The notes beneath the pieces were generated by a model. The model was not told the DNA's origin and ran no database searches. It saw only the letters and a list, made by a program, of their open reading frames with translations. A stretch of DNA of 37,955 nt, from contig JBAXOJ010000003.1 of the NCBI GenBank assembly GCA_037133315.1, positions 1 through 37,955 on the forward strand. Reading direction: 5' to 3'. Below, piece by piece: positions 2,519-29,543 of this stretch; positions within the stretch are counted from its first letter, which is position 1; each line of letters begins with the position of its first letter. A program made the translations under genes and the position numbers. Source of the DNA: Clostridia bacterium. Its GTDB lineage: Bacteria > Bacillota > Clostridia > JBAXOJ01.

Positions 2519-4942
2519 CTATTTTTCTTCTAAAACTACCTCAATCAACATTTGTACGACCTTAGGGTCAAATTGCGTTCCCGCATGCTTTTTGATTTCT
2601 TCGATTGCTTCTTCAACATTGATCATTTTACTATATGCACGCACACTCGTCATCGCGTCAAACGCGTCCGCGACGGCAATGATTCTCGCTTGTACCGAAA
2701 TCTCTTCCCCCTGTAAACCCCTCGGATATCCACTTCCATTCCACTTTTCGTGATGTGAAAGGACATCGTCCGCAATTCTTGAAAATTCAACAACAGAACT
2801 TAAAATCCGATAGCCGATTTCCGGATGGCGATGTATTTCCTTCCATTCTTCCGCATCGAGTGCCCCGTCTTTGTTCAGTATTTTTTCATCAATGCCAATT
2901 TTTCCAATGTCATGCATCAAACCTGCCGTCCGAATTTGATTGATCTCTTCTTGAATAAAGCCCATACGCGTTGCAATGGATTCACAAATCTTGCTTACTC
3001 TTTCTGAGTGAAGCATCTCGCGATGGCTTTTCTCAAATAAAGTATGTAGGATCAATTCCATAATACTACTTCTCATACTCGTGCTTTCGGATAGTTTATT
3101 ACGATACATTTCATCTTCTGCTCTCTTAAAAACTTCTTTCATTTCATCAGACGGCAGTTCTTTGATCGCATATCCAATGGAAACGGACAAAGGAATGTTG
3201 TTGATTTTTTGGCCTGCGCAATACTCATGCACACGCCGAATAATCTTGCTTGCATAGTCATAGGTCGTTTTCGGTAACAAGATGATAAACTCATCGCCAC
3301 CGATACGCGCAACAACATCTTCCGGACGACATTCCTTTTTCAAAACACGCGCTACCATCTCTAACAGCAAATCCCCTGATTTATGCCCAAATGCATCATT
3401 CGTAAGCTTCAACCCATTCACATCAACCATAATTAAAGACAACGGCAAGTACTCTTCTTGGTTAAATTCAATCAATGATTCATCATAAAATTTCCTGTTT
3501 TTCACGCCAGTTAACTGATCATTATTACTGAGTCTCTGAATCTCTTTTTCTGCTCGTTTTCTCGCATCAATATTGCGGCTTACGCCAACCACTTCAATCT
3601 CACCCTCTTGATTCAATCGCAGTTTTGCTGAGACTTCGACCCAGATGATATCGCCGTTTTTATGCGGTTGTTGAATCTCCGAAATGTAAAAATCATTACT
3701 GACTGGATTTTCAATAAAGGCAGGAATATATTTTTTCAAATCTTCATTAATCTTAGCGAGTGAATCGGGCACCAATGCATCTTCAAGACGCTCATCAATG
3801 GCTTCTTCCGATGTATATCCTCGTAAATAAAAAATCGAAGGGCTAATGTAGGTAAATTTGTTTTTTACCGTATTTAAAATCCAAATGACGTCCGAGGCAT
3901 TCTCCGTCAAAAGTCTGTATTTTTCTTCGCTCTTCTTGATTTCTTCGTTTGCTATAACCTTATCGGTAATATCAATCAATAAGTAATTGACAAATCCATT
4001 TTTTATATCGATGACGCTTCGTTTCACATCAAACCATCTTTTATTTCCGACGATTTCAATGGAAACGATTTCCCCATCTTTCAGGTCCCTAGCGATGTTG
4101 GAATGCCCATCCATTTCCATTTTAAAAAGTGCATTTGCCGTTTTATTATAAGAGATTAAATCACCAAATTTATCAAATAAAAAAGCCGGTTCTCCAATCT
4201 CAAAAAAGGTACTCTTCCATCGTTTGATTTGAATCTCAAACATATTGTTTCTTGTTTCGTTCACTAAAAACAGAATACTCATCAGAATAATTGTAAAAGG
4301 TACCGGATCAATATATTTATCAAACCCTAAAATGATAATGAGAATCGTCAACCAAGGAATCTGGAAAGATAACAACATGAAACGAAGACTTTTACGTTTG
4401 TTATTGCTCATCCTTATTGTTTTCCCTTTTTGATATGCGCGGAAAATCATCACAGTCGAAAAAACGACAAAGAACGCATGAAAGAGTAACAAAGAATAAA
4501 AACTCGGCCCTTTCACTGTAGTCACAATCCCAAACCCATAAATCTGAAGTAAGTCAATCTGCTTATAGATAAAATGATGAAATGGATTCGTAATAAATAT
4601 AACCCAAAGAATGAAGGATAGATAAAAAAGTATTATTTTTATCCATAATTTTATTTTCACATTTACGATGTCTGCAACAAAAAGAATCCCAAATGCAGGA
4701 ACAAACGTCGCGCCAAAAAATTCAAAGTTGCGCACTAGAAGCATGGTATCGTAAGAGGTACAATTGAGTTCTAAAAAATAGCCAAAAGAATAGATTGCAG
4801 CAGCAACCATCACAAGAGAAAAATAATTTACTTTACTTTCCTCCCGATGTTTGAAAAGCACGATACCCAAAGCGATATACGCAATAGAGATGAGCGGAAT
4901 GCTATTCACGATTAAGTGTAAAAACACAATTTGTAAGTCCAA
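2519..4942 (-). CDS. Membrane sensor with 7TM, PAS, GGDEF and HD-GYP domains (c-di-GMP cyclase/phosphodiesterase)
   Basis: Hydrophobic N-terminal ~230 aa; PAS (YRLLTENASDVIW...WVEVS...GVSRNI); DQLTG, NDAFGH, RPED I-site and GGDEF; HDIGK, HHEKWNGSGYP and VADAFDAM. Confidence 0.9.
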   Translation of the reverse strand: MDLQIVFLHLIVNSIPLISIAYIALGIVLFKHREESKVNYFSLVMVAAAIYSFGYFLELNCTSYDTMLLVRNFEFFGATFVPAFGILFVADIVNVKIKLWIKIILFYLSFILWVIFITNPFHHFIYKQIDLLQIYGFGIVTTVKGPSFYSLLLFHAFFVVFSTVMIFRAYQKGKTIRMSNNKRKSLRFMLLSFQIPWLTILIIILGFDKYIDPVPFTIILMSILFLVNETRNNMFEIQIKRWKSTFFEIGEPAFLFDKFGDLISYNKTANALFKMEMDGHSNIARDLKDGEIVSIEIVGNKRWFDVKRSVIDIKNGFVNYLLIDITDKVIANEEIKKSEEKYRLLTENASDVIWILNTVKNKFTYISPSIFYLRGYTSEEAIDERLEDALVPDSLAKINEDLKKYIPAFIENPVSNDFYISEIQQPHKNGDIIWVEVSAKLRLNQEGEIEVVGVSRNIDARKRAEKEIQRLSNNDQLTGVKNRKFYDESLIEFNQEEYLPLSLIMVDVNGLKLTNDAFGHKSGDLLLEMVARVLKKECRPEDVVARIGGDEFIILLPKTTYDYASKIIRRVHEYCAGQKINNIPLSVSIGYAIKELPSDEMKEVFKRAEDEMYRNKLSESTSMRSSIMELILHTLFEKSHREMLHSERVSKICESIATRMGFIQEEINQIRTAGLMHDIGKIGIDEKILNKDGALDAEEWKEIHRHPEIGYRILSSVVEFSRIADDVLSHHEKWNGSGYPRGLQGEEISVQARIIAVADAFDAMTSVRAYSKMINVEEAIEEIKKHAGTQFDPKVVQMLIEVVLEEK

Positions 4943-20276: not shown

Positions 20277-21392
20277 ATGAAATTAGGAATTGTAGGCCTG
20301 CCGAATGTCGGCAAAAGCACGTTGTTCAATGCAATTACAAAGGCCGGAGCGGAATGTGCCAATTACCCGTTCTGCACCATCGAGCCAAACGTCGGCGTCG
20401 TCACGGTACCAGATGAACGGCTCGATAAACTCACGCAAATGTATGCCTCCCTGAAAACCATCCCCGCCATCATCGAGTTTGTCGATATCGCCGGGCTGGT
20501 CAAAGGCGCAAGTCGCGGCGAAGGCCTCGGCAATAAATTCCTCTCCCACATCCGCGAAGTGGATGCGATTTTGCACGTCGTGCGGTGCTTTGAGGACGGC
20601 AACATCATCCACGTCGACGGCGCAATCGGACCCGCGCGCGATGTTGAAACCATCTCCCTCGAGCTGATCTTCGCGGACATGGAGCTGGTCGAACGCCGCA
20701 TTGACCGGTTGCGCAAAATGCTCAAAGGTGACAAAGGGCTTCAGGTCGAAATCGACTTGCTCGTGCGCCTTCTCACTCATTTGGAAGCCGGCAAACCCGC
20801 ACGCACCCTGGAGATGACGCCGGAGGAGGCCGATCTGGCACGCGGCGTGTTTTTGCTAACGTCGAAACCAGTCATCTACGCCGCAAACATCTCCGAAGAC
20901 GACATCGTCGACCTCTCTAGCGATGACAGCGACGAGACCTCCGGCAATCCGTTTATTGTTGAATTGAAGAAATTTGCACACGCCGAAGGCTCTGAAGTCA
21001 TCGTCGTGTGTGCGAAAATAGAAGAAGAAATCGCACAGCTCGAGGATGCCGAGAAGGCGGAGTTCCTGGAAGCCCTTGGCCTCAAGGAATCTGGCCTGGA
21101 CAAGCTGGTGCGCGCGAGTTACAAGCTGCTTGGACTCATTAGCTTCCTGACGGCGGGCCCACAGGAGACCCGTGCTTGGACCATCACGAAGGGCACGCGC
21201 GCGCCGCAGGCGGCCGGCAAGATTCATACCGACTTCGAAAAGGGCTTCATCCGTGCCGAAATCGTGGCCTACGATGACCTCATGTCCCACGGCACGTACG
21301 TCGCCGCCAAGGAAAAAGGCCTGGTCCGCAGCGAAGGCAAGGACTACGTCATGAAAGACGGCGACGTGACACTTTTTAGATTTAATGTGTAA
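20277..21392 (+). CDS. ychF: Redox-regulated ATPase YchF (Obg family)
   Basis: [37 protein letters not shown] domain, and the FRFNV end. Confidence 0.98.
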
Positions 21393-21398
21393 AGGGAA

Positions 21399-21600
21399 AA
21401 GGTAAAGGCAGGCCGCTGGCGCAATGGTAGGGGCAGGCCGCTGGCGCAATTGCAGGCGTAAAAGCAAGTGCGAGAAGGTAAAAGCAGGCCCCTGGCACTA
21501 TTGCAGGCGTAAAGGCAAGTGCGAGAAGGTAAAAGCAGGCCGCTGGCGAAATTGCAGGCGTAAAGGCAAGTGCGAGAAGGTAAAAGCAGGCCCCTGGCAC
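21399..21600 (+). repeat. GC-rich 51-bp tandem repeat (~3.3 copies plus a partial copy)
   Basis: Unit GCAGGCC(G/C)CTGGC....TTGCAGGCGTAAA(A/G)GCAAGTGCGAGAAGGTAAAA starts at 21433, 21484, 21535 and 21586; partial copy at 21399-21424. Confidence 0.95.
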
Positions 21601-21636
21601 GCTTGGCCGTTCGCTAACAGCTCGGAACCAGCGAAC

Positions 21637-21913
21637 TTTAACAAAATTCTTCACATAATTGAATTCCTTGTATAAAATTAATCAAAATTCAGCACCTCAC
21701 ACAACCAAATCTAGAGGTTTTAACAAAAAACAGGGGTTACGAAAAATCCTTGTATAAAATACTTGATTATTTCACGTTTTTTTATACAAGGATTCTGAAA
21801 CAATGCGGTTTTTTGTTAAATCCAATTAATTCCTTATCGATAATCGATAAATCGGCACATGGTTTCAAGCAATTTTATACAAGGAATTCTAGAATGATAT
21901 ATATTTTGTTAAA
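21637..21913. repeat. Four copies of a bipartite 41-bp motif TTTAACAAAA-N18-TCCTTGTATAAAA, two forward then two reverse
   Basis: Forward at 21637-21677 and 21719-21759; reverse at 21780-21820 and 21873-21913. Both boxes and the 18-nt gap length are identical in all four. Confidence 0.93.
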
Positions 21914-21961
21914 ATGAGTTACCCTTACCTTTTATCTTTTCCATTTATCCCACCTACGCGT

Positions 21962-22083
21962 TTGCGCCCGCGGCATGCCTTTACCTTCTCGCCTTTGCAC
22001 CTCTTTTGCGCCATCGGCATGCACTTACCTTCTCGCCTTTACACTTCTTTTGCGCCAGTGGCATGCACTTACCTTCTCGCCTT
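21962..22083 (-). repeat. GC-rich 44-bp tandem repeat (~3 copies), inverted relative of the 51-bp array
   Basis: TTGCGCC...GGCATGC..TTACCTTCTCGCCTT starts at 21962, 22006 and 22050. Its reverse complement shares the core GCGAGAAGGTAA..GCA.GCC...GGCGCAA with the left array. Confidence 0.93.
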
Positions 22084-22140: not shown

Positions 22141-23049
22141 TTATCTCAGTAACGAATAAATGCTTGATGAAAAAAATATATAATCAAGTAAAAATAATTC
22201 AATCAAGTATGGAATAATAAACAAAGTAAAATTCAAGCCTAAAGAAGTTTTTTTAAATGGATAGCTAGATTTAGATAATTGATAGAATTTGTAATTTAAA
22301 ATTAAAAATAATAATACTGACAAACCCATTGAAACGAGTGATGCAATGAAGTATATGGCGCGATTTTCATTTTTAAAAAAACAAAATATGACTAACAAAG
22401 GCATAATCCCAATAAAAAAACTTAACAAAAACCCCGCAACAAAAAAGTTTATTTCCTGTCCACGCAGCGCCCCCAGCGCCTCCGCCACCTGCGCTTCCAG
22501 TTCTGCGGGGCCGGCGTTGTTGTCGAGTACCACGTCCGCCAACGCCAAGTAGTCCGCAGGCGCGAGCTGCGTTTCCATGCGGCGGAGGCATTCTTCGCGC
22601 GTGTAGCCGCGGTCGGCCATCAGGCGTGCGATTCGCAGCTCCAAATCGGCATCCACCACCCAGACGGTATCGCACAGATCCAGGAAGCCGTCCTTCACCG
22701 GCAGCGGCACGTCGAGCGCGACGAGACGAATGCCCTTTTCCTTTAGCTTTTGAACATCGGCTTTCATTTGGACGGCGATGTGTTTGTGCAGGATCGCCTG
22801 CAGTTGTGAAAGGGCGACGCTGTCGCCAAACACCAAGTCCGCGGTCTTTTTGCGGTCAAAATTGCCGGCCGCATCCAAGATGCGTGGCCCTAATGTTTGC
22901 GTGAGCGCGTCAAGCAGTGGACCTTTTTGCGAGACTAGGCGCCTCGAGATTTCGTCCGCGTCAATGATGGCCACGCCGCGCGCCGCTAGGAGTCCAGCGA
23001 CGGTTGACTTGCCCGCGCCAATGCCGCCGGTCAGGCCAATAATTTTCAT
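22141..23049 (-). CDS. coaE: Dephospho-CoA kinase with an AT-rich C-terminal membrane extension
   Basis: MKIIGLTGGIGAGKST, IDADEIS, DVPL, RLMADRG, ADVVLDN. Directly downstream of polA. About 103 extra hydrophobic residues after ~22455. Confidence 0.9.
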   Translation of the reverse strand: MKIIGLTGGIGAGKSTVAGLLAARGVAIIDADEISRRLVSQKGPLLDALTQTLGPRILDAAGNFDRKKTADLVFGDSVALSQLQAILHKHIAVQMKADVQKLKEKGIRLVALDVPLPVKDGFLDLCDTVWVVDADLELRIARLMADRGYTREECLRRMETQLAPADYLALADVVLDNNAGPAELEAQVAEALGALRGQEINFFVAGFLLSFFIGIMPLLVIFCFFKNENRAIYFIASLVSMGLSVLLFLILNYKFYQLSKSSYPFKKTSLGLNFTLFIIPYLIELFLLDYIFFSSSIYSLLR

Positions 23050-23050
23050 T

Positions 23051-25720
23051 CTATTTGGTTTCATACCAGGAATACCCCCATTTTGCCTCCGCGCGCAACG
23101 GCACGCAAAGCTGCGCCGCGCCCTCCATGCAGGCGTCCACGATTTTGGCGACGGCCTCTGCCTCGTCTTTTGGCGCCTCCACGAGAATTTCGTCGTGGAC
23201 CTGCAGAATCAACTTGGCCTTGAAGCCCTGCGCCTTAAGTTCGGCATACACGCGCACCATCGCCACCTTCATGATGTCAGCCGCGGTGCCTTGGATTGGG
23301 GCGTTCATGGCGACGCGTTCGCCGAAGGAACGCATGTTGAAGTTGGATGCGTGCAACTCAGGAATGTAGCGCCTGCGTTTCATCAACGTCTCAATATACC
23401 CCGTGCGCTTGGCCTCGACCACAGACGCTTTCATGTAATCACGCACGCCCGTGTAAAGGGCCAGATACTCTTCGATGTAAAGCTTCGCCTCGCGGCGCGT
23501 GATGCCCAAATCGCGGGACAGCGAAAAGTCGCTGATGCCGTATACAATGCTGAAATTGACCGTCTTCGCCCGGCTGCGCATGAGGTTGGTGACCTCGCTT
23601 GCTGGGACGTTGAAAATCTGTGTGGCGGTCGTGGTGTGAATGTCTTCGCCGTTGTTGAAGGCATGGATCATGGTTTCATCCTGCGCCACGTGCGCCAGGA
23701 CGCGCAACTCAATCTGCGAATAGTCGGCATCCACGAGTAGTCGGTCCGGTGCGCCGGCCACAAAGACCTTTCGGATTTCGCGTCCCAGTTCGTGTCGGAC
23801 CGGGATGTTTTGGAGGTTCGGCTCGGTGCTGCTGAGCCGCCCTGTCGAGGTCGCCGTCTGGTTGAAGTTCGAGTGAATCCGCCCGTCCGACGGATTAATC
23901 GCCGCTAAGAGCCCGTCCGCATAGGTCGACTTCAGCTTCGCAAGTTGGCGGTATTCAAGAATCAGATTGACGATGAGATGGTCGCCACTCAACTGGTCCA
24001 GCACGTCTGCGTCCGTAGAATAGCCCGTCTTCGTCTTTTTCACAGGCGGCAGGCCAAGTTCCTCAAAGAGCACCACGCCCATTTGCTTGGGAGAGTTGAT
24101 GTTGAAGGTGCGCCCCGCGTGTTCGTAGATCGCAATCTCCAAAAGCCCGATGCGTTCGCCCAACACCCGCCCGTATTCCACAAGCTGGTCGCGATCCACT
24201 GTGAAGCCTTCGTGTTCCATCGAGGCCAACACGCCGACCAGCGGCAGTTCCACATCAAAATAAAGCGCGTCTTGCCCGTTTTCGCGCACGCGTGCATGCA
24301 AACTTTCAATCGTCACCGAAACGACAGCCGCCTTATCGGCATCACTCTGCCCGATTCTCGCAGCCACAATCCCCGTGAACGCCTCCGCGATTTCCTCGAT
24401 CCCGCGGTTCCCGAGCGACGGATTGATGACATAGGCCGCCACGAGCATATCCCCCGCCAGGCCTTGCAGTTCCGCCCCGCGGTCTTGAAGCCAGACGCAA
24501 AACTGTTTCATTTCGAAGCCGTATTTCGCTATGGACGCGTCCGTCATGACGTCGCGCAGCGCATCAAAGACCCCCGACTCGGGAAACATCAGTTCGTTGC
24601 ACTCAATCTGCCACGCATCGCCCCCACAGTGGAGCCCCAACCCGTCCAGTCGTGTGCCGTACACGTCACGATTGACCGAGGCGAAGAGGCTCACCTGCCC
24701 CGCCGTTTTGATTGCTGCGCAAACACCAGCCAGTTCGTTCAATTCATGGATTTTCACAATGTGTGGGTGAAACGCCTTCTCGTCCACGGAGATTTCTAGG
24801 ATGCCACCCGGCGCTCCTATGTTTTCGCCTTGGGCGGTGAGTTTGAGACGATTGATCATCGATTTAAAGCCGAGTTTCATAAAAATCTCGTACAATTTGG
24901 TTCTATCATAATCCTCGATGAGGTAGCCCTCGAGGTCCACAATCCCGGGGACTTCGCGGCAAATGGTCGCCAGTTCGCGACTCAAAAACGCCATCTCTTT
25001 ACTCGTCTCGAGCTTCAATTTGAGGGCAGGCTTGGTGATTTCGTCAAGGTGCGCGTAGAGCCCCTCAAGGTTGGTGTATTTTTGAATCAGCTCCATCGCG
25101 GTCTTTTCTCCAACGCCCGCAACGCCTGGGATGTTGTCGGACGAATCCCCCATCAGGCCTTTGATATCAAGCATCTGTGCTGGCGCAACACCGTACCGCT
25201 CGTGCACGGCTCCCACGTCATAGATGTCGAGCGTCGTCTTGCCCATACTCGTCTTTGGCAGACGCACCGTCGTCTTTTCGGTCACGAGCTGAAACGCGTC
25301 TTTGTCGCCGGTGAGAATGATGGCGTCATGCCCTGCCTCCTCCGCCAAACGCGTCACGGCGCCGATGATATCATCCGCCTCAAAGCCTTCGACCTCCAGG
25401 CGCGTAATCCGCATGGCATCCAAGATTTCTTTCATCATTGGCATCTGCACGGCCAGCTCTGGCGGCATGCCTTTGCGTTGGGCTTTGTACTGGTCGAATT
25501 TCAGGTGCCGAAACGTCGGCGCCTTCAAATCAAACGCCACCGCCAAGTGCTGCGGCTTGACTTCCTCCAACTCTTTAAAGAGGATGTTGAGGAAGCCAAA
25601 AAGTGCGTTGGTGGGCGTGCCGTCTGCCGCCGTCAGGTTCTGCCCCGACGTGCCATAAAACGCCCTATTCAAAATGCTATTGCCATCAATCACGAGCAAC
25701 TTTTCGCTGGTCTCCATCAT
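23051..25720 (-). CDS. polA: DNA polymerase I
   Basis: 5'-3' exonuclease (IDGNSILNRAFY, EADD, GDKD, GDSSDNIPGV); PolA motifs TGRLSSTEPNLQNIP, DYSQIELR, AKTVNF, NAPIQG, QVHDE. Confidence 0.98.
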   Translation of the reverse strand: MMETSEKLLVIDGNSILNRAFYGTSGQNLTAADGTPTNALFGFLNILFKELEEVKPQHLAVAFDLKAPTFRHLKFDQYKAQRKGMPPELAVQMPMMKEILDAMRITRLEVEGFEADDIIGAVTRLAEEAGHDAIILTGDKDAFQLVTEKTTVRLPKTSMGKTTLDIYDVGAVHERYGVAPAQMLDIKGLMGDSSDNIPGVAGVGEKTAMELIQKYTNLEGLYAHLDEITKPALKLKLETSKEMAFLSRELATICREVPGIVDLEGYLIEDYDRTKLYEIFMKLGFKSMINRLKLTAQGENIGAPGGILEISVDEKAFHPHIVKIHELNELAGVCAAIKTAGQVSLFASVNRDVYGTRLDGLGLHCGGDAWQIECNELMFPESGVFDALRDVMTDASIAKYGFEMKQFCVWLQDRGAELQGLAGDMLVAAYVINPSLGNRGIEEIAEAFTGIVAARIGQSDADKAAVVSVTIESLHARVRENGQDALYFDVELPLVGVLASMEHEGFTVDRDQLVEYGRVLGERIGLLEIAIYEHAGRTFNINSPKQMGVVLFEELGLPPVKKTKTGYSTDADVLDQLSGDHLIVNLILEYRQLAKLKSTYADGLLAAINPSDGRIHSNFNQTATSTGRLSSTEPNLQNIPVRHELGREIRKVFVAGAPDRLLVDADYSQIELRVLAHVAQDETMIHAFNNGEDIHTTTATQIFNVPASEVTNLMRSRAKTVNFSIVYGISDFSLSRDLGITRREAKLYIEEYLALYTGVRDYMKASVVEAKRTGYIETLMKRRRYIPELHASNFNMRSFGERVAMNAPIQGTAADIMKVAMVRVYAELKAQGFKAKLILQVHDEILVEAPKDEAEAVAKIVDACMEGAAQLCVPLRAEAKWGYSWYETK

Positions 25721-25799
25721 GTCGCCACGCTCCTCCGCGTATTCAAGTACTTTGGGTAGATTATATCATTTTTGCGATTCGAAATGGAAATAAAATTTG

Positions 25800-25839
25800 A
25801 TATTTGTAGTTTACAAATATTCCCATTCTATGATATGAT
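25800..25839 (+). promoter_or_regulatory. Putative promoter of the RAYT-like gene with an overlapping perfect inverted repeat
   Basis: TTTACA (25810-25815)-N18-TATGAT (25834-25839) with TGn extension. ATATTTGTA-GTT-TACAAATAT at 25800-25820 covers the -35. Confidence 0.55.
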
Positions 25840-25867
25840 AACCTTTCAAATTGGGGAGGCGGTTTTC

Positions 25868-26878
25868 ATTAGGTATTTCAGTTTTCATGTCTGGATTCAC
25901 GGGTTTGGCAGCCAGTCTTTGTGTCGCGACGACGCGGACAAATTCGAGATGGTGCGTACACTCGCTAAAACCTGCCTTGACACCGATCGCGGACTATTCG
26001 GGTATGACGCACTACACACGCATCTGCACTTTATGTTTGGGTTGCGTTGGGGTGCACGCGAGGATCCGCCTGCTGGTTGGGCTGTCGTACAAATCAAGGA
26101 TTTTTGCCATCTTCTGCGTCGGCGTTATGGGGCGTATTTTAGGCATCGCTACCCGCATTTCAAGGGCGATTTGTTCGCGCGCGAACACGACAACTTTACC
26201 GCGTCCGGGAATCCCGATGCCTTTGTGGCGCAGCTCAAATACCTGCATCACAACAGCGTGGGTGCGCGGATTTTCGACGTCTATGAAGAAAATCCATTTT
26301 GCTCCTTCCCACTCTATCTCTCCGCCTTTGTGCACAATCCCGAGATCCAGAACGTGCCCATCGTGCGGGCTGTCTCACAGAATCCCGCGTATTTGCCAAT
26401 CTACGATGCACTCGACATGGAATATGCGTTAGGCCAATTCCGCGGCCACTTTGACCAACGCGTCCGCAACTTCATCAAGCAGCACGAATCCTACCTACAA
26501 TACCGAAGCCGCAATGCGCAACATAGGCATAACCAACTTGGGGTCGGCACGCTATTCCGCGACGCCGATGCGCTCCAAATTGCGAATACGAGCGGTCATC
26601 AAGTCCTGCGTCTCATCGACCAAATCAACGGGCGCAAATCCGAACTCCTTTTGTCAGGCGCCTCGTCGCCTCAAGAGGCGTCGGACACCTTTCGCTCCTT
26701 CTTTCCTTTTGATGAGGACACCGTGGATGTTAAAAAACACTTTTTGCACATTCGAGACCAGTATCCAGACGCGTTTCAGAAATTTATCCAAGCGCTGGGG
26801 CAAACTTGCACCCAAAGAGGCCTATCCGCGATGACTGGGATTTGCCGTGCAAACATCAAAACCCTCCTTACACAGTAA
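25868..26878 (+). CDS. Divergent REP-associated tyrosine transposase (RAYT)-like HUH/Y1 nuclease with putative C-terminal HTH
   Basis: FHVWIHG...RDDADK...GYDALHTHLHF (HUH)...RYGAYFRHRY...GDLF...KYLHHN (catalytic Tyr position)...PFCSF..Y follows the Y1_Tnp/RAYT motif order. C-terminus TQRGLSAMTGICRANIK is HTH-like. Start uncertain: ATT at 25868 has a GGGGAGG SD; the frame is open from 25772. Confidence 0.75.
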   Translation: MRYFSFHVWIHGFGSQSLCRDDADKFEMVRTLAKTCLDTDRGLFGYDALHTHLHFMFGLRWGAREDPPAGWAVVQIKDFCHLLRRRYGAYFRHRYPHFKGDLFAREHDNFTASGNPDAFVAQLKYLHHNSVGARIFDVYEENPFCSFPLYLSAFVHNPEIQNVPIVRAVSQNPAYLPIYDALDMEYALGQFRGHFDQRVRNFIKQHESYLQYRSRNAQHRHNQLGVGTLFRDADALQIANTSGHQVLRLIDQINGRKSELLLSGASSPQEASDTFRSFFPFDEDTVDVKKHFLHIRDQYPDAFQKFIQALGQTCTQRGLSAMTGICRANIKTLLTQ

Positions 26879-27127
26879 GGAGGGCAAATCCGTACCACTC
26901 TTTACAGTAAGGACGCGAAATCCGTACCACGTCATTCGATGAGCTTGCAATCTAGTGGCGCCAAAAGTATTTTCACGCTTGCTCGAGCATTAAAACGAGA
27001 GAAATAATGATAAAAGATATAAAAAAACGTACAAAAAGCAAAATGTAAAGGCATTTGTCGTTTTTCGCGGTACGGATTTACCTCACTTACTGTGTTTTGA
27101 GCAGTAAGGACACGAAATCCGTACCAC
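26872..27127. repeat. Cluster of four 27-bp REP-like repeats, consensus ACAGTAAG-N6-AAATCCGTACCAC
   Basis: Forward at 26872-26898, 26904-26930 and 27101-27127; reverse at 27067-27093. The first copy contains the TAA of the RAYT-like gene. Confidence 0.9.
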
Positions 27128-27165
27128 TCAAGTTAGTCCGAGAACTTTCCCATCGCGCACAAGCA

Positions 27166-28317
27166 TTATGATTTGCGATACCGCCCATTCCTCTTTAATG
27201 CCATGATTTCTTCAATAATTTGATTGACCGCACCTGGCTTTGCAAGCACGAATGCCTGTTTGCTCATGCGCGCCAAGATTGCTGGGGTCCCAAGCAGGTC
27301 GTTGATTGTTTCTGAAAGGACAGCGGCGCTCAGGTTGCTTTCTAATACCAGAAAAGCAGCGCCTTGTTTTTGAAAGGTAAGGGCATTTTTCTCCTGGTGG
27401 TTCGCCGTGACGTTTGGCGACGGAATCAAGATGGAAGGAAGCCCCATGACCGCTAACTCAGAGAGCGTAATCGCACCTGCGCGGCAAATGATTAAATCCG
27501 CGGCGGCATAGACTTCCGCGACGTTATGGATAAAGCTTCGAATTTCGACACCAACTGGCACGGGACTTGCCGCAAACTGCCCAAGCACGGCCTCGTAGCG
27601 CCCTTCGCCGGTCGCAAACAAGAGTCGATAACCCTTGACTTGATTGCTAAATTGACCCACCTGGATGGGCGATTGGTAAAAATTCTGGATGAGCGAAACC
27701 ATGGTTTCGTTGATTTTTTCCGCGCCCAAACTTCCGCCCATGACGACCACCAAGCGGTCACCGACGGTGAGATTCATTTTTTCGCGACATTCTTTGCGGT
27801 TCACCGTCAACAGTTCTTCCCGCACTGGGTTCCCTGTGAGCGAGACATACCGGGCTGATTTGAAAAACTGCCGCGATTCCTCGAACGAAATACAGACCGT
27901 GTCAACAAAGCGTGCGAGCAGTTTGTTTGTCACACCAGGCACTGCATTTTGCTCGTGAATCAAGGTTGGAATTTTCATGCGAGACGCGCAAAACAACACT
28001 GGGCCACACACATATCCGCCCATGCCGATGACAATATCGGGCTGAAAACGTTTTATGATTGCCTTCGCGTCCGCATAGCCCTCAAACATTTTTTGAAACG
28101 AAGAAAAGAACTCCAACCCAATTTTGCGCTGGAATCCGCTGACGCGAATAAATTCAATTTGAAATCCTTCTTGCGGGATGATACGTGATTCCATCCCTTT
28201 TTCCGTGCCGATAAATAATATTTCTACGCCATCTTGTTTTTTGACTAATCTCTTCGCCAAAGCAATCCCGGGATAAATATGACCCGCCGTCCCGCCGCCT
28301 GCGATGATGATCCGCAT
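27166..28317 (-). CDS. murG: MurG glycosyltransferase
   Basis: GGGTAGHIYP, GMGGYV, HEQNA, TGNPVR, GGSLGA, CRAGA, HQEKNA. Confidence 0.97.
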   Translation of the reverse strand: MRIIIAGGGTAGHIYPGIALAKRLVKKQDGVEILFIGTEKGMESRIIPQEGFQIEFIRVSGFQRKIGLEFFSSFQKMFEGYADAKAIIKRFQPDIVIGMGGYVCGPVLFCASRMKIPTLIHEQNAVPGVTNKLLARFVDTVCISFEESRQFFKSARYVSLTGNPVREELLTVNRKECREKMNLTVGDRLVVVMGGSLGAEKINETMVSLIQNFYQSPIQVGQFSNQVKGYRLLFATGEGRYEAVLGQFAASPVPVGVEIRSFIHNVAEVYAAADLIICRAGAITLSELAVMGLPSILIPSPNVTANHQEKNALTFQKQGAAFLVLESNLSAAVLSETINDLLGTPAILARMSKQAFVLAKPGAVNQIIEEIMALKRNGRYRKS

Positions 28318-28336
28318 ACATCTCAACTCCTAGAAC

Positions 28337-29503
28337 TTATTCTTTTTCCGCCTGCGTCACTATTTTATCACTATTTCGGGAAATATTCAGTAAAATCCCC
28401 ATGGAATACATCAAAAAAATCAGAGATGTTCCGCCATAACTAAAGAACGGCAGAGAAACGCCTGTGACAGGCATTAAAGAGGTTACGACCAAGATGTTCA
28501 TGATAATTTGAGTTGCTAGAATTGTGGTTATACCGATTGCGAGGTAGGATGAAAATTTGTCAGGCGCATGGGCTGCGATGGAAAATCCACGAAAGATCAG
28601 ATATCCAAATAACATGATGACAATCAGCGCGCCGATAAATCCGGTTTCCTCCACAAGAATCGCGAAGATGAAGTCGTTTTGGGGTTCTGGCAGGAGGAAT
28701 TTTTGGGCACTTTGACCCAGCCCTTTTCCAAACCAGCCGCCTGAGCCAATTGCCATGAGAGAATTGACAATCTGCCAGTTCTGCCCTTGGATGTTTTCGG
28801 GGTTAAAGGGGTCTAGGAAAGCGAACACGCGCGCTTTCCGAAACGATTCCATGGCAATGAGTAGCACTCCCATGCCAATCCCACCAGCCAAAATAGTAAA
28901 GAAATATTTCAGCTTTGTGCCTGCAATCAATAGCAAAACAACGACGGGAAGCACAATAATTACGGTTGCACTCAGATGGTGTTGCAGCTGCAAGATAACA
29001 GCCACAGCCACTATTACGATTGCATAAAAAATATAATTTCGAATGCGGTCTAATTTTAGATTCATTTTTGAAAGTTTGTATGAGATTAATATGACCATCG
29101 CAATTTTCATGAACTCAGATGACTGGATTGTCACAGAGCCAAAAAACAGCCACCTCCTGGCACCGTTGACTTCATGTCCCAGCGGCGTAAATACTGCAAC
29201 TAGCAGCACAAGTCCAAATCCAAAAATAGGCCACGCAAATTTTCTATACACTTTATAATTCAAAAATATGGCGACAAGCATTCCGACTGAACCAATCCCA
29301 AGCATAATGAGTTGTTTTTTCAAATAGGACAACGAATCTCCAGACTCACTGTATGCCGTTGGTGCACTTGCATTAAACACCATATAGGTACCTATGATGA
29401 GCAGGACGGCTACTACTATGAAAAGTTGTACATCAAATTGTCCGCGTTTCACACCCTGCCTCCTCTCGAAAACTCTCGAAACCGCAGAAAGCATGCATTC
29501 CAA
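28337..29503 (-). CDS. ftsW: FtsW/SpoVE SEDS peptidoglycan polymerase
   Basis: NGARRW, QSSEFMK, AIGSGG..GKG, LPEPQNDFIFA, PVTGVSLPFFSYGGTS. Confidence 0.93.
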   Translation of the reverse strand: MECMLSAVSRVFERRQGVKRGQFDVQLFIVVAVLLIIGTYMVFNASAPTAYSESGDSLSYLKKQLIMLGIGSVGMLVAIFLNYKVYRKFAWPIFGFGLVLLVAVFTPLGHEVNGARRWLFFGSVTIQSSEFMKIAMVILISYKLSKMNLKLDRIRNYIFYAIVIVAVAVILQLQHHLSATVIIVLPVVVLLLIAGTKLKYFFTILAGGIGMGVLLIAMESFRKARVFAFLDPFNPENIQGQNWQIVNSLMAIGSGGWFGKGLGQSAQKFLLPEPQNDFIFAILVEETGFIGALIVIMLFGYLIFRGFSIAAHAPDKFSSYLAIGITTILATQIIMNILVVTSLMPVTGVSLPFFSYGGTSLIFLMYSMGILLNISRNSDKIVTQAEKE

Positions 29504-29543
29504 AGTTTCTCAATTTCTCGACTCCTTCTACTATCGTTCTATT

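Follow-up and report, generated by a model that had tools for sequence, protein, structure and literature searches.

A divergent RAYT-like HUH nuclease gene and an adjoining composite repeat between polA and murG of an uncultured Clostridia bacterium: a probable REPtron-like unit

In the stretch of DNA analysed here (the window, 37,955 nucleotides), one open reading frame without a conventional annotation lies among housekeeping genes, and the question is what it encodes and whether it is connected with the repeated sequences at its 3' end. The gene is on the plus strand at 25868..26878 (336 amino acids from an ATT codon, with the stop codon at 26876-26878), within an open frame that spans 25760-26878. 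The initial annotation described it as a divergent RAYT-like HUH tyrosine nuclease between polA and murG, without an accompanying tnpB. Both neighbors were named by NCBIfam: polA at 23051-25720 (minus strand, 1013 bits) on the 5' side, and murG at 27166-28326 (minus strand), followed by ftsW and mraY, on the 3' side. No tnpB-like ORF adjoins the gene among the ORFs of the window, in agreement with that description, and no RNA family was found by Rfam in 25600-27300.

Searched alone, the window protein had no meaningful match in Pfam or NCBIfam and no relative among genome contigs, and a word-based homolog search returned only two proteins. A profile of seven family members was searched against 1.84 billion proteins and matched 3950 of them at E ≤ 1e-3. 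Fourteen of these were full-length (E ≤ 1e-30), and the remaining matches covered only the N-terminal ~155 residues (profile positions about 3-158). Proteins belonging to Pfam Y1_Tnp were matched at E 7e-16 and weaker, and 20 of 22 more distant relatives that were scanned exceeded the Y1_Tnp cut-off. The family itself did not: none of its 14 representatives reached the gathering cut-off of Y1_Tnp (PF01797, 23 bits), with 22.4 bits the best score, and in the genome that contains the window PF01797 touched only RAYT-like paralogs, three of the six, all below the cut-off. A search of PDB sequences with the seven-member profile returned nothing meaningful. The Pfam/HHpred comparison suggested in the initial annotation was thus negative for a direct Pfam match but positive between profiles, since hhalign aligned the 17-member family with 41 canonical Y1_Tnp proteins at a probability of 99.9% (E 2.1e-32). 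The sole PDB sequence match of the joint profile was 4er8, the E. coli TnpA-REP protein bound to a REP hairpin. The family is homologous to the Y1/HUH proteins through this transitive profile evidence, and this branch of the superfamily goes wholly unnoticed in standard annotation with Pfam and NCBIfam.

All of the motifs listed in the initial annotation were present, in the same order: F6-H7-V8..H11-G12, D21-D22-x-D24, H52-L53-H54, R85-R-Y-G-A-Y-F-R-H-R-Y95, G100-D-L-F103, Y125-L-H-H-N129, and P143..S146...Y150. They lie in the HUH/Y1 catalytic core, residues 1-156 (25868..26335, plus strand), which is supported by a 63-sequence alignment, the profile, and the fold match to 4er8. In that alignment the columns of the two HUH histidines (H52 at 26021-26023 and H54 at 26027-26029), of the predicted catalytic Tyr125 (26240-26242) and of Asn129, a predicted metal ligand (26252-26254), all on the plus strand, were nearly invariant, so the two histidines and the tyrosine are intact as had been claimed. 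Through the profile these four residues paired with H59, H61, Y115, and N119 of 4er8, the last of which is a metal ligand (residue roles as given in the passages of Quentin et al. 2018, PMC6006769, used here). Y125 and N129 were invariant within the 17-member family, and the window protein has kept every family-invariant residue (G88, R92, G100, Y125, N129, and E140) in addition to H52 and H54. The loss of other usually conserved positions was also confirmed, with the CLMxNHxH context altered and the NP after the tyrosine changed to NS. The family signature is Y-x3-N; the proline of Y-x3-N-P was replaced in 16 of 17 sequences and kept only in P0015. At this position the window protein has serine, and most relatives have Ser, Ala, Thr, or Gly. 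Two residues of canonical GHLFQxR, the Gln and the Arg, are also missing from the family.

An AlphaFold2 model of the window protein (pLDDT 95.8, pTM 0.93) gave the same answer as the profiles. The structure proposed for comparison in the initial annotation, E. coli TnpA-REP, was the top match in both fold searches: 4er8 in Foldseek (E 2.2e-4, TMt 0.64) and 4er8_A in VIA-align (Z 12.3, rmsd 3.0, 146 of 165 residues, model range 1-214). A homodimer prediction scored 0.00, which is no answer on monomer versus dimer. The transposases of IS200, IS608, and ISDra2 were also similar in fold (Foldseek E 3e-3 to 4e-2, VIA-align Z 7.4-8.9) and in profile. This similarity, together with the hairpin-forming sequences that adjoin the gene and the presence of several gene copies in the genome, would be expected of the transposase of an autonomous, self-copying insertion sequence of the IS200/IS605 type. 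However, IS608 TnpA (Z 8.9) was aligned over residues 1-117 only, ending before the tyrosine helix, whereas the alignment with TnpA-REP, a monomeric enzyme, included that helix. The Y-x3-N signature and the lack of tnpB also speak against such a transposase, as do the nature of the gene copies, the repeats, and the relatives of the locus.

The 2.1-Mb MAG to which the window belongs contains six paralogs (designated C3, which is the window gene, C15, C58, C75, C89, and C106), five of which were absent from the initial annotation. They are only 31-34% identical to each other, and none has a near-identical twin; the copy-number comparison that had been suggested therefore argues against an ordinary IS200.

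Beside the window gene is a composite REP-like element of 255 nt (26873..27127, plus strand) in which two direct units are separated by a spacer from an inverted pair. Unit 1, CAGTAAGGAGGGCAAATCCGTACCAC (26873..26898, plus strand), overlaps the stop codon and is followed by a second direct unit (26905..26930, plus strand) and by an A+T-rich spacer (26931..27066), which contains AAAAAGCAAAATGTAAAGGCA at 27033-27053. The inverted unit 3 (27067..27092, minus strand, three mismatches to the unit pattern) and the direct unit 4 (27102..27127, plus strand) complete the element. Zero matches were expected by chance for the four 26-nt units, three direct and one inverted. Units 3 and 4 can form a 61-nt imperfect hairpin with ends of the GTGG...CCAC type, and a perfect 10-bp hairpin, CCCTCCTTAC-aca-GTAAGGAGGG (26862..26884), spans the stop codon, with the start of unit 1 as its 3' arm. 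Folded as single-stranded DNA, the composite had a predicted energy of -44.8 kcal/mol (z -5.26). The arms of the unit 3-4 hairpin were compared in nine copies: compensatory changes were found in 12 of 26 pairs, a number reached by none of 500 shuffles, and 85% of cells were paired compared to 77.6% in the shuffles, none of which was as high. This co-variation could come from how inverted copies arise, besides selection for pairing. No dispersed repeat was found in the gene's 5' flank, so the earlier observation that repeats abut only the 3' side stands.

The same layout, with fixed unit spacing, recurs at nine further loci, of which five are full and four are partial or single. All nine are extragenic; this is a modest copy number, counted in a fragmented MAG. 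Units in these copies had zero to five mismatches, the spacers were unlike the one beside the gene, and no near-identical copies indicating recent movement were found among the window-type elements of the genome. Of 31 credible units, 27 start with GTGG when read on the opposite strand, but these letters were also part of the search pattern, and GGGG replaces GTGG at the orthologous loci. Contigs from three public runs, in which rare variants are dropped, showed neither a joint that spans the element nor an empty site.

Orthologs of the window protein, 52% and 61% identical, were found on two metagenome contigs. In both of these related contigs the gene is beside murG (69% and 63% identical), so the synteny asked about in the initial annotation is kept in two diverged relatives. 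Both loci have also kept the arrangement of two direct units, spacer, and inverted pair, with a different unit sequence; gene and repeat have co-diverged. By eye, the AAAAAGCAAAATGTAAAGGCA stretch is similar in both. Diverged orthologs beside murG and the lack of near-identical copies support the claim that the gene is host-resident. In combination with the low identity of the paralogs, the nine further loci that have the element but not the gene, and the repeat-free 5' side, this locus conservation makes it very unlikely that the gene is the transposase of a self-copying insertion sequence, an explanation that we disfavor.

None of 59 murG loci of other genomes had a family member within 2.5 kb, and a sample of about 800 genomes from the class and the phylum contained no full-length member. 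For MurG, the best matches (45% identity or lower) were from Clostridia/Bacillota MAGs, so the description of the family as clostridial holds broadly. In a tree of the family, C3, C15, C58, C75, and C106 each paired with a representative other than their own sequence, and C89 paired only with its own copy (P0004). From this placement, five of the six paralog lineages, all except C89, appear to be common to other source organisms.

Every one of the six paralog loci had at least one flank with a dispersed repeat. In total, 8 of 11 paralog flanks carried such a repeat, compared to 48 of 280 control flanks, and by our own arithmetic six of six would occur by chance with a probability of ~5e-4. There was no cross-match among the six paralog-adjacent repeat families, and two of the paralogs, C58 and C106, were bracketed on both sides by copies of their own element (92% and 97% identical). 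The claim that the gene has its own repeat family is thus supported as an association, with a dispersed extragenic element at the gene and a distinct family at each paralog. GTAAG was considered as a guide motif shared by the six families but was not supported, as words of this kind were found in the flanks of only four of the six loci. No 6-mer or 7-mer was significantly enriched across the six families (best p 2.9e-3 among 1512). By eye, GTAG was seen beside hairpins in the C75 and C58 families.

Not all of the repeats accord with a one-to-one partnership. Dispersed repeats in 17% of the control flanks (48 of 280) show that the genome is repeat-rich, and 31 of these 48 flanks fall outside the six paralog-adjacent families. 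This indicates that the pairing of paralog with repeat family is not exhaustive and that adjacency by itself is weaker evidence than it appears. The proteins might instead be Y1/HUH-derived DNA-binding proteins with a function unrelated to repeats, similar to subclass 2.1 or the TIRYTs, in which case the adjacency would be a by-product of the repeat-rich genome. Two of the closest canonical relatives, P0090 and P0134, have Bac_DnaA_C-like tails, and Quentin et al. (2018, PMC6006769), in the passages used here, describe subclasses 2.1 and 2.3 as having large C-terminal domains and no flanking REPs, with more than five diverged copies possible in subclass 2.3. We nevertheless consider this reading unlikely: nearly invariant His, His, Tyr, and Asn would not be expected in a pure DNA binder, each of the six paralogs has a repeat-bearing flank from a different family, two are bracketed by their own element, unit 1 overlaps the stop codon in the window, and the orthologous loci keep the architecture with changed units.

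The part of the protein beyond the core consists of two segments. Residues 157-266 (26336..26665, plus strand) form a family-specific helical region that is absent from canonical Y1_Tnp relatives and includes an invariant G243-H244. In the full model, pLDDT was 96-98 for residues 161-240 and fell to 82-86 at 251-270. The C-terminal half folded by itself, with an alignment of 8 rows, had a pLDDT of 63.9, and much of the 157-266 region was below 50. In a fold search with this half model all Z scores were under 5, which assigns no fold to residues 157-266, and a search of the ESM Atlas with residues 157-336 returned only unnamed clusters (0.91-0.92). The C-terminal helical tail, residues 267-336 (26666..26875, plus strand), might contain a helix-turn-helix. 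It resembles Spo0J, KorB, ParB, and DnaA domain IV at Z 3.5-5.0, within the noise range, and hhalign aligned it to the corresponding part of canonical relatives; the tails of two of them, P0090 and P0134, scored below threshold on Bac_DnaA_C. No Pfam HTH family, including Bac_DnaA_C, HTH_23, and HTH_28, was above the cut-off for the window protein, and one family member matched HTH_30 at E 0.054. The initial annotation of extra residues ending in an HTH was therefore correct as to the extra sequence, a region of ~110 residues and a tail of ~70, but the identification of the tail as an HTH meets low structural scores.

The start of the gene is unusual in that the codon at 25868 is ATT. In an alignment with the L027 ortholog, it falls exactly on the ATG of that gene (IRYFSFHVWIH compared to MKYLVFHSWIH), and a Shine-Dalgarno-like GGGGAGG, read from the sequence, is present at 25853..25859 (plus strand), 8 nt before the ATT. 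AGGAGG or GGAGGGG precedes the ATG or GTG starts of the paralogs and the ortholog at the same distance. The nearest alternative in-frame ATG, at 25835, would give a 347-aa form (P0001); this ATG lies inside the predicted -10 hexamer of a promoter-like sequence, TTTACA-18 nt-TATGAT (25810..25839, plus strand), with TG before the second hexamer and 10 of 12 consensus matches. Promoter-like sites are not in excess in this region, with 2 found and 2.2 expected from shuffles. By eye, the C15 and C89 paralogs are preceded by similar TTTACA...TATTAT boxes. ATT starts occur in some bacterial genes, at a low level.

In the other ortholog, L026, the first ~40 residues are missing, with loss of the first strand and helix, and there is a stop upstream. 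Together with the ATT start, this indicates that the window's lineage of the family may be decaying. The window gene could then be a relic, with little or no translation and no remaining action on its repeats, in a family that is RAYT-like now or was formerly. The diverged copies of the window-type element and the lack of near-identical ones showing recent movement would be consistent with this. However, the 336-codon frame is intact with every family-invariant residue kept, the ATT is preceded by a good Shine-Dalgarno sequence, and low-level initiation would suit a nuclease. We consider a relic to be unlikely.

These data indicate that the ORF is probably a resident (domesticated) Y1 HUH single-stranded DNA nuclease of the TnpA-REP/RAYT kind, which forms a REPtron-like unit with the 255-nt composite at its 3' side. 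If it is active at present, the 26-nt units would be exposed as imperfect hairpins in single-stranded DNA, for example at a replication fork, and bound by the HUH core. H52, H54, and N129 would coordinate a divalent metal ion, with Y125 cutting the strand to form a 5'-phosphotyrosine link. Rejoining by strand transfer would copy or move the non-autonomous element to other intergenic sites, and in this way would maintain the roughly ten loci of the window repeat family. The helical region and the possible C-terminal HTH may provide extra DNA binding, targeting, or regulation of the active site. Each of the six anciently diverged paralogs would serve a separate repeat family.

Mobile DNA that is maintained in bacterial lineages through vertical descent is exemplified chiefly by REPIN-RAYT systems, which have been studied mostly in Proteobacteria, where a genome has one to three RAYTs. 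The results here raise a broader possibility, which we judge to be evenly balanced: that in an uncultured, deep-branching Clostridia lineage with a small genome, RAYT-like nucleases of a new architecture (HUH core, family-specific helical region, and HTH-like tail) have undergone a private radiation to at least six to eight ancient members, each partnering a separate family of composite hairpin elements of ~60-270 nt. Taken together, these elements would be present in at least a tenth of the intergenic flanks. Such a multi-REPtron genome would be outside the Proteobacteria, and its partnerships would be vertically inherited and co-diverged. If the REPtron-like reading holds, the six diverged pairs of nuclease and repeat in a single 2-Mb genome would be a natural panel for how a Y1 HUH enzyme reads hairpins, through the cross-specificity of the paralogs, and would allow questions about the role of the large C-terminal domain and the coexistence of several repeat populations to be addressed. 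Orthogonal HUH enzymes with distinct single-stranded DNA targets are useful as protein-DNA tagging tools.

Comparison with known systems places the window protein nearest to TnpA-REP. It shares the HUH/Y1 core with class 1, the IS200/IS605 transposases, and recognition of subterminal or imperfect hairpins in single-stranded DNA is common to class 1 and TnpA-REP (PMC6006769, in the passages used here). It differs from class 1 in having Y-x3-N where Y-x3-Q is given in the same source, in the structural alignment with IS608 that stops short of the tyrosine helix, in having neither tnpB nor identical multi-copy units, and in the position of the gene outside the repeated element.

TnpA-REP/RAYT proteins make up class 2 of the TnpA-Y1 superfamily, for which the passages used of Quentin et al. 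(2018, PMC6006769) give the signature Y-x3-N-P and REPs with a 5' GT[AG]G tetranucleotide. The window protein resembles them in its HUH motif and single tyrosine with an asparagine four residues on, in its best fold match, in having no near-identical gene copies and one locus kept in relatives, and in abutting hairpin repeats dispersed in intergenic DNA, which is REPtron-like. Two further likenesses are to points in that source: one protein per repeat family where several coexist, and REPs with a "double foot" GT[AG]G...C[TC]AC, which the GTGG...CCAC pair resembles. There are also differences. At 336 aa the protein is much longer than TnpA-REP (165 aa), to which it adds the helical region and the tail; it scores below the Pfam Y1_Tnp cut-off; and its family has, in all but one of 17 members, lost the proline of Y-x3-NP and has changed CLMxNHxH and GHLFQxR contexts. 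Its repeat is a fixed four-unit composite rather than a simple REP or REPIN, its host is from an uncultured Clostridia lineage, and its genome has six deep paralogs, an unusually high number, compared to the 1.3-1.8 RAYT copies per replicon found in the part of PMC5581495 used here.

Further parallels are offered by subclasses 2.1 and 2.3, both described in the passages used of PMC6006769 as having large C-terminal domains without flanking REPs. Subclass 2.1 there consists of long TnpA-REP-like proteins with Bac_DnaA_C, HTH_23, or HTH_28 tails and includes most TIRYTs. The nearest canonical relatives of the window protein, Y1_Tnp proteins of ~250-370 aa, some with Bac_DnaA_C-like tails, are similar to these, but the middle helical region of the family is unmatched in them. 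Subclass 2.3 is similar in length (about 325 aa) and in having more than five diverged copies per genome, but the same passages report it from Chromatiales and Alteromonadales, and its insertions, located between beta1 and alphaA, have no counterpart in the window protein. Unlike either subclass as described there, all six paralogs in this genome are adjoined by REP-like elements.

The open reading frame at 25868-26878 (plus strand) encodes a member of a divergent family of RAYT-like Y1 HUH proteins (RAYT, REP-associated tyrosine transposase). All of the motifs named in the initial annotation were found in the 336-residue translation, in the order stated: FHV..HG (residues 6-12), DD.D (21-24), the HUH motif H52-L-H54 (52-54), RRYGAYFRHRY (85-95), G100-D-L-F103 (100-103), Y125-L-H-H-N129 (125-129), and P143..S146...Y150 (143-150). 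The proposed Pfam comparison with Y1_Tnp gave a divided result: the protein alone had no meaningful match in Pfam or NCBIfam, but a profile of its family did reach Y1_Tnp proteins. Five further paralogues, with 32-34% identity, were found in the source genome (G000), a 226-contig MAG of 2.12 Mb that is 88% complete. A profile built from the G000 paralogues and one metagenome relative was searched against 1.84 billion proteins, yielding 14 full-length representatives at E<=1e-30, 93 matches at E<=1e-10, and 3950 at E<=1e-3; outside the 14, matches spanned only the first ~155 residues. The Y1_Tnp cut-off (23 bits) was passed by 20 of the 22 more distant matches scanned, two of which had a sub-threshold Bac_DnaA_C tail, and by none of the 14 family representatives (best 22.4 bits). 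Within G000, PF01797 matched the paralogues alone, every one below the cut-off.

Alignment of the 17-member family to 41 canonical Y1_Tnp proteins with hhalign had a probability of 99.9% (E 2.1e-32, 258 columns), and the joint profile had a single match among PDB sequences, E. coli TnpA-REP (4er8, E 3.7e-8), bearing out the RAYT-like identity first proposed. D24, H52, H54, Y87, G100, F103, Y125, N129, and S146 were invariant or nearly so in 63 aligned sequences. The HUH columns aligned with H59/H61 of 4er8 and the Y-x3-N columns with Y115/N119. Quentin et al. (2018, PMC6006769) distinguish Y-x3-Q (class 1), Y-x3-NP (class 2), and Y-x4-Q (class 3) in the TnpA-Y1 superfamily, describe N119 of the TnpA-REP monomer as a metal ligand, and give Q131 of IS608 TnpA as its counterpart. 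Tyr and Asn were kept in all 17 family sequences, while the Pro that follows gave way to Ser, Ala, Thr, or Gly in 16 of the 17, the exception being the representative P0015. The protein is thus homologous to TnpA-REP-like Y1 HUH enzymes, with its catalytic and metal-binding residues intact.

The proposed structural comparison gave a concordant result. The AlphaFold2 model (63-row alignment) had a pLDDT of 95.8 and a pTM of 0.93. Foldseek ranked 4er8 first in the PDB (E 2.2e-4, TMt 0.64), followed by ISDra2, IS608, IS200, and Sulfolobus TnpA. VIA-align against 48,161 chains also ranked 4er8 first (Z 12.3, rmsd 3.0, 146/165 residues, model range 1-214), and then IS608 TnpA (Z 8.9), which aligned over residues 1-117 only, ending before the Tyr helix. 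In the obligate dimer of IS608 TnpA this helix is domain-swapped, while TnpA-REP is described as monomeric (Messing et al. 2012, PMC3479197). Because the IS608 alignment stops before the swapped helix while that of 4er8 covers 1-214, the Tyr-helix arrangement predicted by the model resembles that of RAYTs. Residues 157-266 were helical and confident in the full model, had no counterpart in relatives, and were poorly predicted when folded without the core (8-row alignment), possibly because they pack on the core or just because the alignment was shallow. The HTH-like tail suggested initially found support in hhalign, which paired the last ~70 residues with the tails of canonical relatives, but not in structural comparison with HTH domains (Spo0J, KorB, ParB, DnaA domain IV), where Z values of 3.5-5.0 were within noise; a C-terminal HTH is a plausible prediction.

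As had been noted, the gene lies between polA (23051-25720) and murG (27166-28326), both on the minus strand, with ftsW and mraY beyond murG and coaE beyond polA; all were above NCBIfam cut-offs. The 307-aa dephospho-CoA kinase reading frame (22141-23064, minus strand) matched the CoaE model over residues 7-194 only, and its last ~110 residues form a hydrophobic, low-complexity extension toward a repeat cluster, which may be read-through or a fused tail. G+C content was 48-57% between 18000 and 28000 (56-57% in polA) and 38-45% across most other parts of the window.

The open frame extends from 25760 to 26878, and the codon at 25868 is ATT. Four observations favour it as the start: GGGGAGG stands 8 nt before it; a codon-level alignment places it opposite an orthologue's ATG (MKYLVFHSWIH versus IRYFSFHVWIH); the start codons of the paralogues, ATG or GTG preceded by AGGAGG-type sites, fall at this position; and the nearest in-frame ATG (25835, giving the 347-aa form P0001) sits within the -10 hexamer of the sole promoter-like site upstream, TTTACA-18-TATGAT (25810-25839, plus strand), although such sites were no more numerous in the region than in shuffles.

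At the 3' end of the gene was a composite repeat of 255 nt (26873-27127) with three direct copies and one inverted copy of a 26-nt unit, CAGTAAGGA-nnnn-AAATCCGTACCAC, where chance predicted none. Unit 1 overlaps the stop codon. Unit 2 lies at +32, and an A+T-rich spacer of 136 nt separates it from inverted unit 3 and unit 4, which form a 61-nt imperfect hairpin. BLAST of the 5' flank against G000 found no dispersed repeat, so the restriction of repeats to the 3' side was upheld. Identical layout and spacing were seen on four other contigs (C8, twice; C29; C33; C194), with partial or single copies on C10, C58, C38, and C179, and every copy was extragenic. As single-stranded DNA the element had a folding energy of -44.8 kcal/mol (z -5.26). 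The inverted pair was compared in seven G000 copies and two from orthologous loci (nine in all): 85% of cells paired, whereas shuffles gave 77.6% and slid partners 33-43%, and 12 of the 26 pairs had changes on both sides; none of 500 shuffles matched these values, though covariation of inverted copies can also come from how they arise. Read on the opposite strand, the units open with GTGG and GTGG...CCAC bounds the pair, although the search pattern contained these letters and the orthologous loci have GGGG; the arrangement recalls the "double foot" GT[AG]G...C[TC]AC REPs (PMC6006769).

Each of the six paralogue loci in G000 had dispersed repeats in at least one flank (8 of 11 flanks of 400 nt, by BLAST); for the window's gene, a repeat family of its own had been proposed in the initial annotation. 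The repeat family was different at every locus, and flanks of different paralogues did not cross-match. The family recurred on about 24 other contigs for C106, about 18 for C75, 7 for C89, 6 for C58, and 3 for C15, and for the window's copy (C3) on 4 by BLAST and at 9 loci by pattern. C58 and C106 were bracketed on both sides by their own element, in copies 92% and 97% identical. As a control, 280 flanks taken downstream of long ORFs were compared; a non-self match was present in 48 of them (17%), and 34 of the 280 had such matches on three or more contigs. At this rate the chance of repeat-bearing flanks at all six loci is ~5e-4, which is significant but not overwhelming since G000 is unusually repeat-rich. 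Seventeen of the 48 belonged to a paralogue-adjacent family and 31 did not; coding paralogy probably accounts for part of the 31, and the remainder mean further repeat families without a known partner in the incomplete assembly. Paralogues and repeats are paired in a family-specific manner, in a layout like that of a REPtron (a RAYT gene plus its REP repeats). It is unlikely that the protein is instead a derivative that binds DNA but has no relation to the repeats.

No short word common to all six families was significant; by eye, strong hairpins have GTAG beside them in two families, C75 and C58, and GTGG in two others, C3 and C89. Many G000 contigs end in or near repeats. Downstream of coaE is a large composite cluster (21389-22083) with ~60-nt units containing GCGAGAAGGTAAAAGCAGGCC in tandem at its left side, the reverse complements of these units (GGCATGC.CTTACCTTCTCGCC) at its right, and hairpins built on CCTTGTATAAAAT in the middle; portions matched up to 11 other G000 loci. 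Short stretches at 29466-29528 (the ftsW-mraY junction), 2646-2821, and 3287-3322 matched 6, 2, and 1 other loci, respectively.

Orthologues of the window's gene were found on two metagenome contigs, L027 (52% identity) and L026 (61%). Both adjoin murG (69% and 63% identical, respectively), followed by same-strand ORFs similar in size; in L027 a gene other than polA lies upstream. At both loci a pair of direct units is still followed by a spacer and an inverted pair, with altered units (AGTAAGG-n-TTTTTTGTACCC in L027, CAGTAAG-n-ATTTGTGTACCCC in L026), showing vertical persistence with co-divergence of protein and repeat. By eye, a ~20-nt spacer stretch, AAAAAGC.AAATGTAAG.GCA, is alike in all three loci (window 27033-27053, L027 about 1490-1515, L026 about 1128-1150), the spacers having otherwise diverged, and GAAGGTAAG-like words occur in elements of the C58, C106, and C8/C29 families. 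Downstream of the L027 element (1690-1850) are two tandem arrays, of CGCACCT-type heptamers and of about nine copies of GCGTTAGCGGGC. In the L026 orthologue (1-190), the N-terminal ~40 residues, comprising the first strand and helix, are missing, and a stop closes the frame upstream, about 100 nt before the contig end; it is probably truncated or inactive. This copy and the ATT start would both fit decay of the gene at the window's locus, a reading that is improbable, if slightly less so than an unrelated DNA-binding role.

No near-identical copies of the gene were present in G000, in keeping with the host-resident character proposed for it, and an autonomous IS200-type element is very improbable. 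In a maximum-likelihood tree of 21 family and 6 outgroup rows, none dropped, the family was monophyletic (100/100). Of the six paralogues in G000, five paired with representatives other than their own sequence (C106-P0006, C15-P0009, C58-P0010, C3-P0002-P0007-P0012, and C75-P0016-P0005), and therefore the duplications predate the split of the source organisms. C89 paired only with its identical copy P0004, joining P0008 weakly, and two clades had no G000 member. At E<=1e-20, no full-length family member was found in 40 relatives (none related more closely than "same class"), in the 399 class genomes that were scored (one more was left unscored), or in 400 genomes of the phylum. None of 59 murG loci of other genomes had a family member within 2.5 kb, and the top MurG matches among species genomes, from Clostridia/Bacillota MAGs and isolates, were at most 45% identical. 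Contigs identical or near-identical to 25700-28300 occurred in three public runs (X1-X3) from three studies labelled lake water metagenome; X1, with 96% of sampled words present, may be the source sample.

By analogy, the gene likely encodes a RAYT-like enzyme acting on its own repeat units. Following chemistry established for TnpA-REP and IS200/IS605 TnpA (PMC3479197, PMC6006769), it would bind single-stranded DNA at the imperfect hairpins that its units form, and Y125 would cut to form a 5'-phosphotyrosine link, with a metal held by H52, H54, and N129. Rejoining could then copy or move the non-autonomous composite elements, and the added helical region and tail may serve in DNA binding, targeting, or autoinhibition.

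Most of the defining RAYT features tested were present, suggesting that the system works like a RAYT. It differs in that the protein lacks the signature Pro and falls below the Pfam cut-off, and a GT[AG]G guide is not clearly established for its repeats. A keyword search of the literature, which was not exhaustive, did not turn up any account of the family. The canonical proteins closest to it resemble subclass 2.1, in which a C-terminal HTH is present. PMC6006769 reports no flanking REPs for subclasses 2.1 and 2.3, whereas this family combines a large C-terminal region with REP-like elements. RAYTs are given as 1.3-1.8 copies per replicon (PMC5581495), so the six deep paralogues of G000 are unusual.
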